64,000 bases of DNA from Candidatus Krumholzibacteriales bacterium (GTDB taxonomy: Bacteria > Krumholzibacteriota > Krumholzibacteriia > Krumholzibacteriales > WJIX01): the NCBI GenBank assembly GCA_046483305.1, contig JAWODM010000014.1:59367-123366 (forward strand), written 5' to 3'. This document shows, piece by piece, positions 13,269-58,452 of this stretch. Below the pieces are notes generated by a model, which worked only from the letters and a program-made list of their open reading frames with translations, did not search any database and had not been told where the DNA came from. Position numbers and translations under genes: made by a program. Numbering within the stretch: position 1 is the first letter of the stretch; each line of letters begins with the position of its first letter.

Positions 13269-14264
13269 ATGTCAAGAGCAGGAAAGCGCATCACGGCGGC
13301 AGCGGTTCTGATACTGTTTCAGGCGGCCGGAAATTTCTCGGAGGCAGAAGGCAGCGGCCTTCTGACGGCTCCTTCCAGTCTGAAACTTTCCCATTCCGAA
13401 AGAATCGAAAGCAGAAGGAACGAAAGACTGGTCTCAATATTCGATCAGAACAGAGATTTCAGAATCGCCTCCGGCGGCAGCTCGGAGGAGGCCCTTCGCC
13501 TCAACGGGGAAAGGATTCTTTCTCCCGGTATGGTGGCACCTGACAGGGATTCCGGGCCATACACCGCTGCCGGCAGGAGAAAAAGGAATATGGCGATATC
13601 GATTATCGGCTCGGCCCTGCTTCCCGGGCTGGGCGAGATGTATATGTATTCCAGAACCGGAGAAAAATCGATCCTTGGCCGGGCTCTGGGGTTTATCGCG
13701 TTCGAAGCGTACCTGTGGTACGGATATTTGCACAATCACGACAGGGGCAAGGATTTCAAGCGTCAGTACGAAGAATACGGCGACGCTCACTGGAGCCAGG
13801 AAAGGTTCCTTCAGAACCATCCGATCTGTTATACTACCTTTCAGGGGGGGTGCGACAGCTGGCAGCAGTACAATGAGATAGGTTCAGATGATCACTCTTC
13901 AGAATATTTCTATTTCTTCTATACCGCCAAAGAGGTGGACAGGGAGGAATATTACGAGAATATGGGCAAATACGATGCCTTCCTCTACGGCTGGGACGAC
14001 TGGAACGGGGAGTACCTGCACGAGGGGGGAGAGCCCAACTACTGGACCCCTCATAGAACGTATTACTGGGACCTTCGGGGAGAGAGTAATAAATACCTGC
14101 TCAGGGCGGATTACCATGTAATGGGAATGATCGCGGCCAGGGTTGTTTCGATGGTCCAGGCCGGATGGATAGCCCACAACCGGGGGTCAGCGCCGGAGGA
14201 ATGGTCTCTGGAGATAGACAAATCACCCCTGGATTACAGATGCAGCATTAACTACAGGTTTTAG
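13269..14264 (+). CDS. hypothetical secreted protein, LPGLGE-motif family, paralog A
   Basis: Signal peptide. Central IIGSALLPGLGEMYMY...GRALGFIAFEAYLWYGY segment and a Y/E/W-rich region, ending INYRF. Shares architecture and motifs with the next gene. Confidence 0.5.
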   Translation: MSRAGKRITAAAVLILFQAAGNFSEAEGSGLLTAPSSLKLSHSERIESRRNERLVSIFDQNRDFRIASGGSSEEALRLNGERILSPGMVAPDRDSGPYTAAGRRKRNMAISIIGSALLPGLGEMYMYSRTGEKSILGRALGFIAFEAYLWYGYLHNHDRGKDFKRQYEEYGDAHWSQERFLQNHPICYTTFQGGCDSWQQYNEIGSDDHSSEYFYFFYTAKEVDREEYYENMGKYDAFLYGWDDWNGEYLHEGGEPNYWTPHRTYYWDLRGESNKYLLRADYHVMGMIAARVVSMVQAGWIAHNRGSAPEEWSLEIDKSPLDYRCSINYRF

Positions 14265-47147: not shown

Positions 47148-48884
47148 ATGAAAGTAAATCCGCGTGCCGTCAACCTGCAGGACGAAGATAAGATCAGAAA
47201 GATGATCTTTGTCAGGCTGGTGGTAGCCACTCTGGTAGTGGGAGCCGCTACCATAGCGCTCCAGGCCCAGAGCAGGGAGCTGGCCTCGGCCGTCCTCTAT
47301 TCCCTTCTTGGGGTTATATACCTGAGTACCGGAGCTGTCTATCTGGGGCACCGGCGGGGAGTCCCCTTCAAGTTACTGGTCAGTATTCTTATCGGCGTTG
47401 ATATAGCGGTACTGACCCTGATAGTCCATTACAGCGGCGGATCCGAGTCTATCTTTACCAATCTGTACATACTGACCATATTCATGGGGGGTTTTTACTT
47501 CCAGGTTTCCGGCGGGCTGGTAACCTCCCTGCTGGCCGCCACCGCTTATATAATATACACGCTCCTGGAGCTGAAGGGGGGGGTCAGGTCTCCGGAGGGA
47601 GCCATACTGTTCACCCACCAGAACCTCTTCGATTCACTGATCAACGGGTATGTTCACCTGGCTGTGTTTGTCTCCAGCGGGCTGATCAGCGGATATTTCT
47701 CCCGCAGGATTATCAGCAGCAGGGAAATACTTGCCGACCGGGAAGAGGAGATAAAGCAGATCCAGATAAATAACGATTCCATATTCAGGAATATGAGCAG
47801 CGGGCTGGTGGTTATGAACCTGGAGAGAGAAGTTATATCGATGAATCCCGCGGCCAGGAGGATCCTCGGCGTAGATGAAGGAATGGATGTGGAGGGCAGG
47901 CCTCTCGGAGAAGTTATGGACGGGATGGATCCCCTGCTGCAGGAGCTGGTACTGGTCCAGGAGACCGGGATTCAGAAAAAGAGGCATGAGATCGAACTGG
48001 TCAGGCCGGACGGGACGGAACTTCCGCTCGGTATCAGCATATCCCTGCTCATCGGGAGCGGGGGACAGAAGATGGGAGTAATAGCCCTTTTCCAGGACCT
48101 CACCGAGGTACACATGATGAGAAAGAAGGTAAGGCAGTCGGACAAACTTGCCGCTGTGGGGGAGATATCGGCGGCGATAGCGCATGAAATCAGGGCTCCC
48201 CTGGCCTCCATTTGCGGTTCCACCGAGATGCTGAAGCAGGAACTGGAAGTGGACGAAGAAAATATGGAGCTGATGGACCTTATAATAAGAGAGTCCGACC
48301 GGCTGGACGGAATGATCACCGAGTTTCTGGAGTATTCAAAGATACGCCAGCCGGAGTTCGAATCGGTCAATATCGAGAACTGCCTCAGGGAGACCGTAAT
48401 GCTGATCAAGCACGGCTCTCATCTGAAGGACTCCTGTACCCTCACCTTCGAAGCGGAGGCCGGGGGGATCAGGGTTTTCGCCGACGAGCAGCAGATAAGA
48501 CAGGTATTCCTCAATATCGCTCTGAACGCCTGCCAGGCGGTGGAATGCAACGGGAGCATCAATATCGACCTGAAAACCGTGAAGAAGCGTGCGGAGAACG
48601 GCGAAGGGGAAGTGGAGGAGTACGCCCAGGTCAGATTCATCAACGACGGAGAGCCCATATCAGAGAAGGACAGGGCGCATATATTCGATCCGTTTTTCAC
48701 CACCAAGGAGGGCGGTACCGGCCTGGGCCTGGCCACCGCCGCCAGGATAGTGGAAAGCCATTCAGGATCGATTCACGTGGAAAGCAATAATTTCAGGACA
48801 GTATTTACGCTTCTGCTGCCGCTGAAGCATTTCGAGGGTCAGATAGGAATCAAGGAAATACAGAATCAATTTGAGAAAGTTTAG
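47148..48884 (+). CDS. sensor histidine kinase, PilS-like (multi-TM N-terminus, PAS, HisKA, HATPase)
   Basis: H-box ISAAIAHEIRAPLASI, GTGLGLA G-box, six N-terminal hydrophobic helices. Confidence 0.75.
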   Translation: MKVNPRAVNLQDEDKIRKMIFVRLVVATLVVGAATIALQAQSRELASAVLYSLLGVIYLSTGAVYLGHRRGVPFKLLVSILIGVDIAVLTLIVHYSGGSESIFTNLYILTIFMGGFYFQVSGGLVTSLLAATAYIIYTLLELKGGVRSPEGAILFTHQNLFDSLINGYVHLAVFVSSGLISGYFSRRIISSREILADREEEIKQIQINNDSIFRNMSSGLVVMNLEREVISMNPAARRILGVDEGMDVEGRPLGEVMDGMDPLLQELVLVQETGIQKKRHEIELVRPDGTELPLGISISLLIGSGGQKMGVIALFQDLTEVHMMRKKVRQSDKLAAVGEISAAIAHEIRAPLASICGSTEMLKQELEVDEENMELMDLIIRESDRLDGMITEFLEYSKIRQPEFESVNIENCLRETVMLIKHGSHLKDSCTLTFEAEAGGIRVFADEQQIRQVFLNIALNACQAVECNGSINIDLKTVKKRAENGEGEVEEYAQVRFINDGEPISEKDRAHIFDPFFTTKEGGTGLGLATAARIVESHSGSIHVESNNFRTVFTLLLPLKHFEGQIGIKEIQNQFEKV

Positions 48885-48892
48885 TCAGGGAG

Positions 48893-50278
48893 TTGGAATT
48901 CATGGTAAATGGAAAAGTATTAATCGCTGATGACGAGAAGAGTATGTGCAAGTATCTGTCCATTATGCTCAAGAAGGAAGGGTATGAAGTCGAAACCGTG
49001 TATGACGGAAAGGATGCCATAGAGAAGATCAGGGAGGGCGGCCTTGATGTGGTAATAACCGACATCAGGATGAAGGAGGCCGACGGGCTGGAGGTCCTAT
49101 CCGCCGCCCGCGAGGCCGAATCAAACCTTCCGGTGGTGATAATGACCGCTTACGCCTCCCAGAAGACCGCCATAGAGGCCCTGAACAAGGGCGCTTTCTA
49201 TTACCTGGTCAAAAGGGCCGCCAAGAATGACGAGATAAAGATGGTGGTAAAGAACGCTATCGATATGCGCAGGGTAACCAGTGAAAACGTCTTTCTCAAG
49301 AGGCAGCTGAAGGGTAACGGCGATTTCAAGAATATCATAGGCAAAAGCGAGGAGATGCAGAAGGTGTTCGAGAGGGTAAGGAAGGTAGCCAACTCGGACA
49401 GCACCATCCTGATCAACGGCGAGAGCGGTACCGGGAAGGAGCTGGTGGCAAAATCGATACATTACCAGAGCAGGCGCTCCAAGAATGCCTTCGTTTCGAT
49501 CAACTGCGGAGCTCTTCCTGAAAACCTCCTGGAGAGCGAGCTTTTCGGGCACAGGAAGGGAAGCTTCACCGGAGCGATTAGAGAGAAGGACGGCCTTTTC
49601 AAGGTCGCCTGCGGAGGTACCTTCTTCCTTGACGAGGTGGGAGAGACCTCCCCCGCCATCCAGGTAAAGCTTCTCAGGGTCCTGCAGGAGAGAGAAATCA
49701 TCCCGGTGGGAGGGACCAGGCCCATAAAGGTCGATGTGCGGCTGATAGCTGCCACCAACGCCGACCTGGAGGAGAACGTCAAGAACGGCAGTTTCAGGCC
49801 TGACCTCTATTACCGCCTGAATGTAATACCTATCACGATACCCCCTCTGAGGAAAAGACAGAGCGATATCCCTCTGCTGGTCGATCACTTCCTGAAAAAG
49901 GCCTCCGAGAAGACCAATCAGAAGAAGACCATCTCAAAGAAGGCCCTGGAACTGATGGTCGAGTACGACTGGCCCGGCAACGTCAGGGAGCTGGAGAATA
50001 TAGTGGAGCGTGCGATAGTGCTTCAGGAGGGGGACAGGATCATGCCCCACGACCTGCCCGACAAGATCAGGTTCCACTCCAGGTCGAGCAGGAATATCGT
50101 CCTGGACGATACCCAGATGACGCTGGAGGAACTGGAGAAGGAGTATGTGATCTCGGTGCTGGACGAAACCGGATGGCAAAAGAAGAAAGCGAGCGAGATA
50201 CTTGGGATTAATGCTTCCACGTTGTACCGTAAGATTCAGCGTTATGGCCTGAAACGGGAGAAAGAGACTGTCGAGTAA
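48893..50278 (+). CDS. sigma-54-dependent response regulator (NtrC family, PilR-like)
   Basis: Receiver domain (LIADDEKSM...DVVITDIRM), AAA+ sigma-54 activator domain (GESGTGKELVA, GAFTGA-like GSFTGA, ESELFGH) and C-terminal Fis-type HTH. Confidence 0.85.
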   Translation: MEFMVNGKVLIADDEKSMCKYLSIMLKKEGYEVETVYDGKDAIEKIREGGLDVVITDIRMKEADGLEVLSAAREAESNLPVVIMTAYASQKTAIEALNKGAFYYLVKRAAKNDEIKMVVKNAIDMRRVTSENVFLKRQLKGNGDFKNIIGKSEEMQKVFERVRKVANSDSTILINGESGTGKELVAKSIHYQSRRSKNAFVSINCGALPENLLESELFGHRKGSFTGAIREKDGLFKVACGGTFFLDEVGETSPAIQVKLLRVLQEREIIPVGGTRPIKVDVRLIAATNADLEENVKNGSFRPDLYYRLNVIPITIPPLRKRQSDIPLLVDHFLKKASEKTNQKKTISKKALELMVEYDWPGNVRELENIVERAIVLQEGDRIMPHDLPDKIRFHSRSSRNIVLDDTQMTLEELEKEYVISVLDETGWQKKKASEILGINASTLYRKIQRYGLKREKETVE

Positions 50279-50409: not shown

Positions 50410-50424
50410 TGGCATATTATTTGC
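50410..50424 (+). promoter_or_regulatory. sigma-54 (-24/-12) promoter TGGCAT-N5-TTGC upstream of pilA
   Basis: TGGCATATTATTTGC has GG and GC at exactly the canonical spacing. It lies 120 nt upstream of the pilin start and immediately downstream of a sigma-54 activator gene. Confidence 0.55.
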
Positions 50425-50545: not shown

Positions 50546-50980
50546 ATGAATAACAAGGGTTTTACCCTGATCGAGCTGATGATCGTAGTAGTGATTATCG
50601 GTATTCTGGCAGCAATAGCGATCCCGAACTTTATCAACATGCAGGCGAGGGCAAAGGAAGCTGCAACCAAGTCTAACTGTCATACAGTTCAGCTTGCCGC
50701 GGAGGACTTTGCCGTACAGAATGATGGAGTATACGCAGCGGACAATACCTCAGCGCTGCCAAACGGTGACACAGTTGTGGATCTGTTCCCCGGTGGAGCG
50801 CTTCTGGAGAATCCGTTCACCAAGATCGCCTCTGAGCCCAATGTATGGGGCGGAAATGCTGCTCAGGCCGGAGAGATCGGATACGCAGCTATTCTTCTCA
50901 ACGGTATTAATGTAGGCTATAACATCACCGGCGGTGACAAGGATGGCGCCGTTATGATCACTCTCTCGAGTGGACAGTAA
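50546..50980 (+). CDS. pilA: type IV major pilin (PilA-like)
   Basis: N-terminal class III signal MNNKGFTLIELMIVVVIIGILAAIAIPNF (prepilin peptidase site G|FTLIE). Confidence 0.85.
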   Translation: MNNKGFTLIELMIVVVIIGILAAIAIPNFINMQARAKEAATKSNCHTVQLAAEDFAVQNDGVYAADNTSALPNGDTVVDLFPGGALLENPFTKIASEPNVWGGNAAQAGEIGYAAILLNGINVGYNITGGDKDGAVMITLSSGQ

Positions 50981-51003: not shown

Positions 51004-51038
51004 GGGCGGCTCACACACGGGCCGCCCTTTTTGTTTTT
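51004..51038 (+). terminator. rho-independent terminator after pilA
   Basis: gggcggc (51004-51010) pairs with gccgccc (51021-51027), followed by tttttgttttt. Confidence 0.7.
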
Positions 51039-51040
51039 GA

Positions 51041-51178
51041 TACCCTGTATTGGAAAAACCGCTGTCAGTTTCCCCGGCGAGGAAACTGCAGCTCCCGCCT
51101 CGGGCTCGCTCTTTCTGCCCCTGCGGGCCAGAAATCCGTGCCCGCTCGCCCTGCGGAGGGTTTTTCCAATACAGGGTA
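51041..51178 (+). repeat. structured repeat element, copy 1 (perfect 20-bp terminal inverted repeats enclosing 98 bp)
   Basis: taccctgtattggaaaaacc (51041-51060) is the exact reverse complement of ggtttttccaatacagggta (51159-51178). Internal hairpins cagtttcc/ggaaactg and tttctg/cagaaa. Confidence 0.55.
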
Positions 51179-51247
51179 TCAAGATTAAATAACTATAGCT
51201 GGTTGCCCGATTCTTAGTATTGATATTTTTATTATTTAGTTTATTGA

Positions 51248-51332
51248 CCGCTGTCGGTTACTCGCCGGCCGGGGAAACCGCAGCTCTGAGCCTCGCACAT
51301 CGCTCTTTCCGGCCCTGGCGGGCCGGAAATCC
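51248..51332 (+). repeat. structured repeat element, copy 2 (core only, no terminal IR)
   Basis: Aligns to the copy-1 core (ccgctgtc...ctctttc...gggcc.gaaatcc). Both stems are preserved through compensatory changes (cggtt/aaccg; tttccggccc/gggccggaaa). Confidence 0.5.
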
Positions 51333-51617
51333 ATTAACTGTATGAACCAGAATATAAAACGAAATATATATACTTTGCGACTATAAACAGTCTATAATAT
51401 TGACATCGGCGGCGCTGATTGATATATTTAAACCAAGAAAAGGGGTATTTATAGAAGAAACGCTACAGTTTTCTTTTTGTGTTAAATTCAAGGTTTTAAC
51501 TTACAGGAAGGGAGCGGGTAGCGTCTTTTTATATTTTATGATTATACTGTTTGATTTTTTTTCAGGCTGTAGTATTTTCATAAAAAACTAATAATTGACC
51601 CCGCAAAGAAAGCTGTG

Positions 51618-55264: not shown

Positions 55265-55552
55265 GCCCTTTAACCGGCTGCCGTGATGAGACTGGACCCT
55301 TACGTATTTGAATTGGATTTTCCCCAATATTTCATCAATCAGCCGCAGATGGCAGTTCAGTTACACTGATTCCAGCTCTTATTTTCTGCAGTACAGTATC
55401 GTATGGTTACTCAGTAGAATTACTGTGATGTTTTTGGGGAAACTCCAGGTATTTAAACCTTTGACAGTAACAATAAAGTAGTCTATTTTATTTATCACCG
55501 GAATAGATATCAGGCGGGACATTCCGGGAATTATTAACTGGGAGAGAGAAAT

Positions 55553-56373: not shown

Positions 56374-58452
56374 TTGAAGCAGTACAATATCGAAGATTTA
56401 AGAAATGTGGTGTTCGTGGGGCACCAGTCTTCAGGGAAAACATCCCTTTGTGAAGCGATACTTTTCAATACCGGGATTATCAACAGAATGGGAAGCGTTG
56501 AAAACGGCAATACCGTTATGGATTCCGACCCGGAAGAGAAGGAACGTAACATATCGGTTTCGATGAGCATAGCCGCCATCGAAAAGGACGGAAAGAAGAT
56601 AAACCTGATCGATACTCCCGGGTATGCCGATTTCATTGGGCAGATGCTTTCCGGGATAAGTGTCGCTGAAAGCGGCGTGATAGTGATCCCCGCTGACGGA
56701 GGGATTGAAGCCGGTTCCGAGGTCGCCAACAGCTACCTCAGGGATAAGGGAGCCCCCCGTTTCGTATGCGTAAACAAGATGGACAAGGAGCACGCCGATT
56801 TCGATAAATGCGTTCAGGAAGCCCAGAACGTCCTTGGAAAGGAAGTGATGCCGCTGATTCTTCCGGCAGGCAGCGGAGCGCAGTTCAGGGGTGTTGTCAA
56901 TATTCTGGAGAACAAGGCGTATATTTACAGCGAAGGCGGAAAATTCAGCGAGGAGGAAGTCCCCTCCGAACTTGAGGATAAGGTAAATTCTATCCGCGAG
57001 GAGCTTCGTGATTTTGCGGCCGAGAGCGATGATTCCCTGCTGGAGAAGTATCTGGAGACCGGCGAGCTGTCCGGCGAGGAGCTGGTGAGGGGGTTGAGCG
57101 CCGGATGCCGCCAGGGCACCCTGGTGCCGCTGGTGGTGACCTCGGCTGCAGAGAATGTAGGAGTACAGCAGCTTGTCGATATGATGATCAACATGTTTCC
57201 CTCTCCGGCATACTTCGAAGAGGTCAAGGTCCTCAAGGGAGGCGAAGAGACCGCTGTCAGTATAGATCCGGATTCGACTCCTCTGGCCTTTGTGTTCAAA
57301 TCGTATTCCGAGAAGAACGTGGGCAAACTCTCATATCTGAAAGTCCTCTCCGGCAGGATTACCAGCGGTATGGATATGTTCAACTCGACCGCCGAGACAT
57401 CCGTCCGGATCGGGCAGCTGTATTATGCCATGGGAAGCGAGAAGATCGAAACAGACGAAATTTCAACCGGCGATATCGGGGTGGCGGTAAAACTGAAGGA
57501 AGCAAGGGTTAATGATACTCTCTGCGACAAGGACAACCCGGTCCAGATCCCTGAGATAGAATATCCTGAACCTTCCATCAGAACCGGGATCGTGCCCAGG
57601 GATGAAAGCAACATGGACAAGGTCGGTATCGGCCTGAATAAACTGGCTGAAGAGGACCCCAGCTTCACCGTGGAGATCAGCCAGCAGCTGAACCAGACCA
57701 TACTTTCCGGCCAGGGAGAGCTCCATTTCAATGTTATACTGAGCAGGCTCAAGGACCGGCAGGGGGTGGAAGTGGACATGGTGGAACCGGGAGTGGAGTA
57801 TCTTGAGACCATTACCTCGACCAGCCAGGCCCAGGGTAAACACAAGAAGCAGAGCGGGGGAAGGGGCCAGTACGGAGATGTCTGGATCAAGCTGGAACCG
57901 CAGCCCCGCGGGGAAGGGTTTGAGTTCGTGAATGAGATCGTGGGAGGGGTTGTCCCCAGCAAGTTCGTTCCGGCGGTGGAAAAAGGTATAGTCGAAGCGA
58001 TGCAGAAGGGAGTGATCGCCGGATACAGGATGGTGGATGTGCGGGCCACTCTCTACGACGGGACCCATCACAGCGTGGATTCGTCCGAAGCGGCATTCAA
58101 GGCCGCCGGGTCCAAGGGATTCAAGGCCGCGGTAAAGGATGCCAAACCGGTGCTTCTGGAGCCGATAATGGAAGTGACGGTAAGGGTGCCGGAGAATTAT
58201 ATGGGTGATGTGATGGGCGATCTTTCCATGAGAAGGGGGAAGATACAGGGCACCGAACAGGACAACACCATGCAGATAATAAAGGCCCAGGTTCCGCTGG
58301 CTGAACTGTACAGGTATTCCACCTCCCTGAGGTCAATGACTCAGGGGCGGGCCAGTCATACCAGGGTATTCTCTCATTATGAGATAGTGCCTCACGAGCA
58401 GGCGCAGAAGTTAATAGCCCGGGCGAACATAGACGAAGAGGAATCTGATTGA
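56374..58452 (+). CDS. elongation factor G paralog with degenerate GTPase motifs
   Basis: Full EF-G domain order, including domains IV-V (HSVDSSEAAFKAAGS...LLEPIMEVTVRVPENYMGDVMGDLSMRRGKIQG). G1 is GHQSSGKT and switch II reads DTPGY rather than DTPGH. Not in a str operon. Confidence 0.8.
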   Translation: MKQYNIEDLRNVVFVGHQSSGKTSLCEAILFNTGIINRMGSVENGNTVMDSDPEEKERNISVSMSIAAIEKDGKKINLIDTPGYADFIGQMLSGISVAESGVIVIPADGGIEAGSEVANSYLRDKGAPRFVCVNKMDKEHADFDKCVQEAQNVLGKEVMPLILPAGSGAQFRGVVNILENKAYIYSEGGKFSEEEVPSELEDKVNSIREELRDFAAESDDSLLEKYLETGELSGEELVRGLSAGCRQGTLVPLVVTSAAENVGVQQLVDMMINMFPSPAYFEEVKVLKGGEETAVSIDPDSTPLAFVFKSYSEKNVGKLSYLKVLSGRITSGMDMFNSTAETSVRIGQLYYAMGSEKIETDEISTGDIGVAVKLKEARVNDTLCDKDNPVQIPEIEYPEPSIRTGIVPRDESNMDKVGIGLNKLAEEDPSFTVEISQQLNQTILSGQGELHFNVILSRLKDRQGVEVDMVEPGVEYLETITSTSQAQGKHKKQSGGRGQYGDVWIKLEPQPRGEGFEFVNEIVGGVVPSKFVPAVEKGIVEAMQKGVIAGYRMVDVRATLYDGTHHSVDSSEAAFKAAGSKGFKAAVKDAKPVLLEPIMEVTVRVPENYMGDVMGDLSMRRGKIQGTEQDNTMQIIKAQVPLAELYRYSTSLRSMTQGRASHTRVFSHYEIVPHEQAQKLIARANIDEEESD

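Follow-up and report, generated by a model that had tools for sequence, protein, structure and literature searches.

A hairpin-rich, possibly invertible cassette downstream of pilA belongs to an undescribed family in Krumholzibacteria

The locus downstream of pilA

In the window, that is, the whole 64-kb stretch of Krumholzibacteria DNA that was analysed, pilB, pilT, pilC, pilS and pilR precede pilA, the gene for a type IV pilin. A glycosyltransferase operon of two genes starts at 51615, and between pilA and this operon lies a cassette with a total length of 146 bp (51037-51182), in which a hairpin-rich core is enclosed by perfect inverted repeats. A second, degenerate copy of the core (copy 2) follows the first.

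47148-48884: pilS, upstream of pilA
48893-50278: pilR, upstream of pilA
50410-50424: sigma-54-type promoter TGGCAT-N5-TTGC, upstream of pilA and next to pilS/pilR
50546-50980, plus strand: pilA, type IV pilin with an N_methyl domain
51004-51037, plus strand: intrinsic terminator of pilA, a 9-bp stem and then a T-run, at whose final T the cassette begins
51037-51060, no strand: left repeat arm TTGATACCCTGTATTGGAAAAACC, with its exact part at 51039-51060
51061-51158, plus strand: conserved, GC-rich core of 98 nt, in the orientation named forward
51061-51092, within the core: hairpin P2 (hairpin 1)
51102-51105 with 51140-51143, within the core: short helix P3a, GGGC with GCCC
51112-51134, within the core: hairpin P4 (hairpin 2)
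51159-51182, no strand: right repeat arm GGTTTTTCCAATACAGGGTATCAA, whose inner GGTTTTT forms a T-run immediately 3' of the core
51247-51332, plus strand: copy 2, a degenerate direct duplicate of the core in which P2 and P4 are kept
51400-51428, plus strand: sigma-70-like promoter TTGACA-17-TATATT of the glycosyltransferase operon

The placement of the element between the terminator of pilA and the promoter region of the glycosyltransferase operon, as given in the first-pass annotation, is borne out. The sigma-54-type promoter at pilA implies strong, regulated transcription into the cassette, while the promoter of the operon is downstream of both copies, so that neither of them is located between this promoter and the operon genes. 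No sigma-70 promoter was found in the core, no Bacteroidetes-type -7/-33 promoter was seen in it on reading the sequence, and the stretch immediately ahead of the cassette revealed no promoter-like site. A candidate sigma-54 promoter in the reversed core (GGGCAYGG ... CTGC) was rejected, as its spacing from GG to GC is 11-12 nt and not 10.

The leader of the operon (51460-51539) holds a long hairpin of its own (ACGCTAC...GTAGCGT, with 28 predicted pairs), followed by CTTTTTATATTTT. In its predicted structure it looks like a transcription attenuator. Its stems are invariant over five aligned loci from three species, and thus show no covariation, and a weak Rfam match to FopS (18.8 bits) falls under the threshold. 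In a species lacking the cassette (contig L132, 13887-13948), a 10-nt inverted repeat, AGATTCATGT / ACATGAATCT, surrounds 42 nt, and its right arm overlaps the -35 element TTGACA of the operon promoter.

The exact inverted repeats first described around copy 1 are real, although they measure 22 nt and not 20: the arms of GATACCCTGTATTGGAAAAACC occupy 51039-51060 and 51159-51180, and reach 24 nt when the outer TT/AA is included. With up to three mismatches permitted, GATACCCTGTATTGGAAAAACC matches twice in the window and not once in 100 shuffles. The AAAACC at the inner end of the left arm is kept in all full copies. Both hairpins claimed for the core are present in the two copies. In copy 1, hairpin 1 reads GCTG-T-CAGTTTCC / GGAAACTG-CAGC and hairpin 2 reads TTTCTGCCCC / GGGCCAGAAA with a single C·C mismatch; in copy 2, the counterparts are GCTG-T-CGGTT / AACCG-CAGC and a perfect TTTCCGGCCC / GGGCCGGAAA. 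The unpaired parts of the core that are nonetheless conserved comprise the loop of P2 (CCGGCGA), a TCGCTC stretch, and the 3' tail GCTCGCCCTGCGGAG.

The earlier statement that an element of about 85 nt is present twice also holds, with copy 2 recovered as a degenerate homologue of the core both by nhmmer (E = 7e-7 to 1e-5) and by covariance models (31.7 bits with model R1; 48.6 bits with model R2 and filters off; footprint 51232-51369). Copy 2 has lost the 3' quarter of the core, its tail, and has no intact repeats; a vestigial repeat at 51227-51244 / 51342-51359 is 72% complementary. It is a decaying tandem duplicate. A third copy is absent from the 64-kb window by blastn, nhmmer and the covariance model run with its filters off. 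At 57250, a stretch of 12 matching nt falls within the EF-G gene and was set aside as a chance hit.

Another contig from the species of the window (L002, 10494-10595) holds a hybrid version of copy 1. Its 5' half corresponds to copy 1, 36 nt in the middle are identical to copy 2 of the window, and hairpin 2 takes a new, perfectly paired form, TTTCTGACCC/GGGTCAGAAA. Such a make-up implies that the tandem copies have undergone gene conversion or recombined with each other.

Related copies and their common fold

Copies of the element were sought in the pilS-pilR-pilA neighbourhoods of relatives, on the glycosyltransferase side and at the L014 locus, covering about 0.3 Mb (307 kb) of related Krumholzibacteria DNA; the PilS of the window is identical to a protein that NCBI assigns to 'Candidatus Krumholzibacteriales bacterium', and the relatives identified through PilS belong to the Krumholzibacteriota or former Latescibacteria. 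This search of related genomes with a covariance model found further copies, bringing the family to nine distinct copies in four related genomes, all with the same fold. Every one of them is intergenic.

Downstream of pilA in the window: copy 1 (176 bits) and, 189 nt further on, the degenerate copy 2
Downstream of pilA in L127 and in L128: copies 1 and 2 of each
PDZ-Yip1 spacer of L127 (18317-18468): copy 3, 143 bits
L129: the L128 locus in a different sample
L014: one locus, seen in five assemblies
L036: a copy in a different genomic setting
L140: a fragment where a contig starts
L002: the hybrid described above

A wider pattern scan returned 28 stretches from genome contigs, of which only L014 was a real match, and 96 from metagenome contigs, of which only L036 and L125 were real, the latter being the L014 locus again. 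Viral contigs gave no stretch, and the plasmid and phage collections held no match to the element. No copies were found in 68 kb of DNA from two more distant genera, nor, in particular, after pilA in L133-L138.

All six full-length copies have repeats of 22-27 nt. The inner 6-16 nt of these repeats are conserved, and AAAACC/GGTTTT, the CCGGCGA loop and the junction stretches are nearly invariant. The outer 18-20 nt of the arms, on the other hand, are only 29-42% identical between the type found at the pilA locus and the other type, and still keep their self-complementarity. Among L014, L036 and the third copy of L127, the outer arms are 61-82% identical, and the three share a similar repeat, TGATTGAT..TCAAAACC. 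The cores have lengths of 98, 98, 99, 100 and 101 nt, with indels at differing places, so no ORF is conserved among them. A small protein was considered and rejected, as the frame is not preserved and the overlapping ORFs are not conserved among copies.

The identities among cores, from 74% to 98%, do not follow the relatedness of the species in these sequences. The core of the window is 90% identical to that of L014, which comes from another genus, shares its metagenome-assembled genome with L133, and is accompanied by a PilS (P0006) only 61% identical to that of the window. The L128 copy, which occupies the orthologous site, has a core only 78% identical to that of the window, though its PilS is 86% identical. 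The element is a member of an undescribed family found at several loci in two genera. That it might be a chance palindrome next to a local duplication of no wider meaning, or that its flipped copies might be assembly artefacts, is very improbable: the shuffles yield no match to the repeat, and homologous copies exist in at least four genomes of two genera with scores of 143-176 bits. For the element itself, a reading as chance or artefact is effectively refuted.

Covariation was counted on the model alignment of nine sequences, with five helices: P1, formed by the repeats, and P2, P3, P3a and P4. Complementary bases occupy 94.2% of the paired cells (93% in P1), compared to 38-52% when the partners are slid by 1-3 columns. 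Changes on both sides affect 24 of the 53 pairs (16 of 24 in P1, 6 of 12 in P2 and 2 of 10 in P4), and none of 500 shuffles reaches the observed values on four of five measures. The compensatory change that had been claimed from the two copies of the window is weak on those two, but strong on the nine distinct copies.

The helices that had been taken as a mark of selection on RNA structure do covary, but they lack the bias of G·U over A·C that would assign them to one strand. Among the cells without Watson-Crick pairs, there are ten G·T and six A·C, mostly in two decaying second copies; the full-length copies together with L002 account for two G·T and five A·C. Equally rare G·T and A·C are expected if both strands of the element must function, as they would in an element used in either orientation, and covariation with no strand polarity fits a constraint at the DNA level, or folding of both strands, as well as it fits an RNA gene. 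The cassette folds far more stably than its shuffles on either strand (z of -8.4 on the plus and -8.7 on the minus strand), and the core alone does so modestly (z of -2.8 and -3.2).

A structured non-coding or cis-acting RNA, built as a three-way junction on a long P1 stem of free sequence and transcribed as a 3'-UTR element or small RNA, possibly as a substrate of RNase III, is one alternative. Variable stems next to conserved junctions and loop are the kind of covariation typical of functional RNAs, the predicted fold is very stable, and the core is co-oriented with the flanking genes at three independent loci. The same helices, however, fold equally well from both strands and show no excess of G·U, and the core has been seen in both orientations beside identical flanks (see below), where an RNA would become its own complement. 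The cassette of the window follows a terminator and has no promoter-like site right upstream, and a close relative lacks the element at the same locus. A search of the whole window against Rfam 15 gave no match at the gathering score, and at E <= 10 the best hit over the region was VA RNA, whose 24 bits fall short of the gathering score of 62 and reflect a generic long hairpin. We consider this reading improbable. The structured RNA family suggested by the first-pass annotation thus stands as a real, repeated and structured family, but one that has no Rfam match and no strand polarity.

Orientation and distribution of the core

One sign that the core can be found in two orientations comes from L128 and L129, two assemblies of one species from different samples, which encode the same PilS protein. 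Their DNA is identical from pilA through the left repeat (170 of 170 positions). Past this repeat, L129 agrees at 89 of 89 positions with the L128 core when the latter is reverse-complemented, and at only 17 of 89 with the forward core; the L128 core has the orientation of the window, and that of L129 the opposite one. The flip in L129 is read from the final 89 nt of one MEGAHIT contig and could be a graph artefact at the 25-bp repeat.

A second case involves L014 and L036. Here, repeat, core and repeat align plus/plus at 88%, while both immediate flanks, of about 100 nt on one side and 40 nt on the other, align plus/minus (83% and 88%). The breakpoints coincide exactly with the outer ends of the repeats, and both copies are internal to their contigs. 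This layout would result from an inversion of the inner unit or from a second insertion in the opposite sense at the same point, and excludes an inversion of the enclosing segment. At the L014 locus, the same orientation was recovered in five independent assemblies, which therefore add no third independent flip and count against a switch.

The element also coincides with breaks in assemblies. The contigs L001, L002, L129, L132 and L140 each have one of their ends in the interval from pilA to the glycosyltransferase gene, and in four of the five this end falls inside a copy. The contig L130 ends within pilA, and the species of L132 has no element at that place. These breaks fit a mixture of orientations as well as a loss of coverage related to the hairpins. 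Contig ends of this kind, along with the position of the L129 flip at one of them, are what favours an assembly artefact as the origin of the flipped copies; the L014/L036 inversion lies inside contigs, and the L014 state was seen again in five assemblies.

In L127, the region 13899-14232 consists of a left arm, core 1, a right arm, an AT-rich spacer of 65 nt, core 2 and another right arm. With three repeat arms present, inversion could also involve a longer stretch, about 290 bp in length, in the manner of a shufflon.

Several observations point to a distribution like that of mobile elements. L132, whose PilS is 85% identical, has no element after pilA, and its terminator is followed almost at once by the operon promoter. 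The site of the third L127 copy, in the PDZ-Yip1 spacer, holds no full copy in the window or in L128; the window carries there a solo remnant of 12 nt from the right arm of that copy (ATCAATCAGCCG, 55334-55345), and L128 carries none. L147, with a neighbour protein 95% identical, lacks the entire composite of the L014 type. These empty orthologous sites are too diverged for exact junctions to be defined.

A selfish, non-autonomous mobile element of the MITE or REPIN kind would explain these differences in presence, if a transposase acting in trans recognised the repeats and the sub-terminal hairpins, possibly in a folded, single-stranded form of the DNA. Inversion would in that case be no programmed switch, but a rare by-product of perfect repeats separated by 98 bp, caused by template switching or RecA. 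Besides the presence and absence at orthologous sites (L132, the third L127 copy and L147), this explanation is favoured by the incongruence of core similarity with relatedness (L014 against L128), the similar repeat of three copies at unrelated loci, the intergenic position of all copies, and the lack of a flip across five assemblies of one locus.

Against it, no target-site duplication was noticed when the flanks were read by eye at the copies of the window, at copies 1 and 3 of L127, or at those of L128 and L036, and the flanks of L014 show only an offset GAAGG; the duplication looked for around copy 1 is thus missing from its flanks as read. The two types of repeat have no conserved tips in common. 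A Pfam scan that took in 20 of the 38 ORFs of 90 aa or more in the window revealed no transposase domain, and no parent IS came to light. The copy number is also low, with two copies per 64 kb and none in the 68 kb from two other genera. The compensatory changes within copies, together with the conserved unpaired residues, indicate long-term purifying selection on each resident copy, a pattern that neutral decay would not yield. An insertion of the core into the centre of pre-existing palindromes was also considered and is unsupported, there being no uninterrupted AAAACC/GGTTTT palindrome in the 307 kb of related DNA. The MITE-like mobility proposed at first therefore retains the presence or absence at orthologous sites, and lacks both the target-site duplication, as judged by eye, and, among the 20 ORFs scanned, the transposase domain. 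A selfish mobile element is rather unlikely, though a more serious candidate than an RNA gene.

A separate AT-rich unit of about 100 nt recurs at L125 (173-276), L014 (1178-1278) and L036 (4326-4427). It contains a promoter-like TTGAAC-17-TAAAGT/TAAATT and occurs without the cassette at one of the three loci.

A candidate switch and its known counterparts

The first-pass annotation had offered a choice between a structured RNA family and a miniature mobile element. It was partly right, in that a family with a mobile-like distribution does exist, but the two orientations at the same site point to an invertible cassette. The element resembles a small invertible switch more than it does a plain RNA gene or a MITE of the classical type, and an invertible cassette of a new family is its best-supported description. 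That these are invertible DNA cassettes of about 150 bp in Krumholzibacteria, perhaps acting as terminators of switchable polarity, is held here with moderate confidence.

As proposed, each cassette would comprise a core of 98-101 bp, with two hairpins and a short helix, bounded by inverted repeats of 22-27 bp whose inner ends, AAAACC / GGTTTT, are conserved and whose outer parts drift yet stay mutually complementary. Recombination between both arms would flip the core in place, and the flip would change the hairpin that an RNA polymerase entering from one side encounters immediately ahead of the distal arm's T-run. With the core reversed, the strong, GC-rich P2 hairpin of 12-14 bp would lie 2 nt before U4-5, the canonical layout of an intrinsic terminator, whereas in the forward state, which is that of the window, only a weak hairpin of 4-7 bp would abut the U-run. 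The cassette of the window would in this way gate the read-through from the strongly driven pilA into the glycosyltransferase operon. Flipping would be frequent and driven by an enzyme (phase variation), with termination as its possible mode of action.

The repeats put an A-run ahead of the core and a T-run behind it. In predicted folding, orientation determines in each of the six full copies which hairpin precedes the T-run, and in the reverse orientation the 47-nt 3' segment with P2 folds at about -20 to -27 kcal/mol. Some hairpin precedes a rather short U-run in both orientations, and the contrast between an ON and an OFF state is a prediction of these folding models. The cassette of the window comes after a good terminator and before the promoter of the operon itself, so a switch at this place would act on read-through only. 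At L036, the best promoter-like site is downstream of the cassette, which counts against a terminator switch. A simple terminator does not explain the highly conserved unpaired stretches of the core either. With regard to inversion, no recombinase or invertase domain was detected in the same Pfam scan of 20 of the 38 ORFs, and the 98 bp between the crossover sites are very short for the synapse of a site-specific recombinase, which counts against an inversion switch.

A more speculative proposal, to which we give a low probability, is that of a portable switch module, self-contained and of a new kind, in which the 98-nt core would be no cargo but the part that a recombinase recognises as folded DNA, either as a cruciform or as a single strand. 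Recognition of this kind would account for the covarying stems, the conserved unpaired residues and the free outer repeats, and would allow a segment of 98 bp to invert and to be seeded at new intergenic sites. If true, it would represent a system of structure-guided inversion and mobility in an uncultured phylum.

The closest counterparts of such a cassette are the cwpV (Cdi1) and flgB switches of Clostridioides difficile, invertible leader segments without a promoter which are acted on by RecV. The cwpV switch has 195 bp and 21-bp repeats, contains no promoter, and has been proposed to act via an intrinsic terminator formed in one orientation (PMC2784873). Like it, the cassette is a short segment with neither promoter nor ORF, whose orientation would set a terminator-type structure by one repeat, although at 98-101 bp its core is shorter than the 195 bp of cwpV. 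The cwpV and flgB switches are situated between a mapped promoter and the regulated gene, whereas the copy in the window follows a terminator and comes ahead of the next promoter. For those switches the recombinase is known, while the scan of 20 ORFs in the window gave none. Unlike the Krumholzibacteria cassette, they do not form a family that shares a conserved, structured core at several loci.

In Bacteroides fragilis, a comparable family is known, with related invertible regions at several loci. More generally, the invertons of Bacteroides (polysaccharide loci, Mpi, PhaseFinder) have repeats of 19-25 bp and occur at several loci per genome, near genes for surface structures, where they are served by a remote master invertase. 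The host of the cassette presumably belongs, like Bacteroides, to the FCB superphylum. The Bacteroides cassettes carry a promoter, whereas neither a sigma-70 nor a sigma-54 promoter was found in the Krumholzibacteria core, which is instead rich in GC and hairpins and has covarying stems.

Other elements share the architecture of the cassette. Correia/NEMIS elements of Neisseria, ERIC, RUP and REPINs are intergenic, about 100-170 bp in length, bounded by inverted repeats and able to form long hairpins; the stems of REPINs show compensatory change, and Correia transcripts are substrates of RNase III. These elements reach tens to hundreds of copies, some with TA or other target duplications, in contrast to the two copies per 64 kb of the cassette, for which no duplication was seen, whose outer repeat is free in sequence, and for which inversion in place was observed. 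The attC sites of integrons are imperfect palindromes of 57-141 bp in which structure is conserved over sequence, with extrahelical bases and defining core sites R''/R' (RYYYAAC ... GTTRRRY). An attC identity was rejected, since the ends of the element (TTGATACC...GGTATCAA or CAGTTGATTG...CAATCAACTG) hold no R''/R' sites; unlike attC, the cassette has a perfect stem without extrahelical bases and a conserved central core, and forms no cassette array.

To our knowledge, phase-variable DNA inversion has been documented almost entirely from cultured, host-associated bacteria, and we know of no inverton reported from the Krumholzibacteria, a phylum known only via environmental metagenome-assembled genomes; the literature searched contained no paper linking Krumholzibacteria with the term 'inverted repeat'. 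If confirmed, the cassette, with its 98 bp, would rank with the smallest known segments that invert, would belong to the rare class without a promoter that is thought to work through termination, and would show an unusual pairing of a strongly conserved, covarying fold with a sporadic, mobile-like distribution. On the practical side, the element breaks short-read assemblies of Krumholzibacteria genomes beside pilA, and the covariance model can be used for charting the family and for tracing a recombinase through co-occurrence.

The PDZ-Yip1 spacer of the window contains a second segment flanked by repeats (55315-55327 / 55434-55446, GGATTTTCCCCAA ... TTGGGGAAACTCC), with a 13-nt repeat that has one mismatch and 106 nt between its arms. 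The motif GGAGTTTCCCC / GGGAAACTCC of this segment also bounds a composite of about 290 nt around the L014 and L036 cassettes. Judging from its sequence, the segment in the spacer may be another, nested invertible unit.
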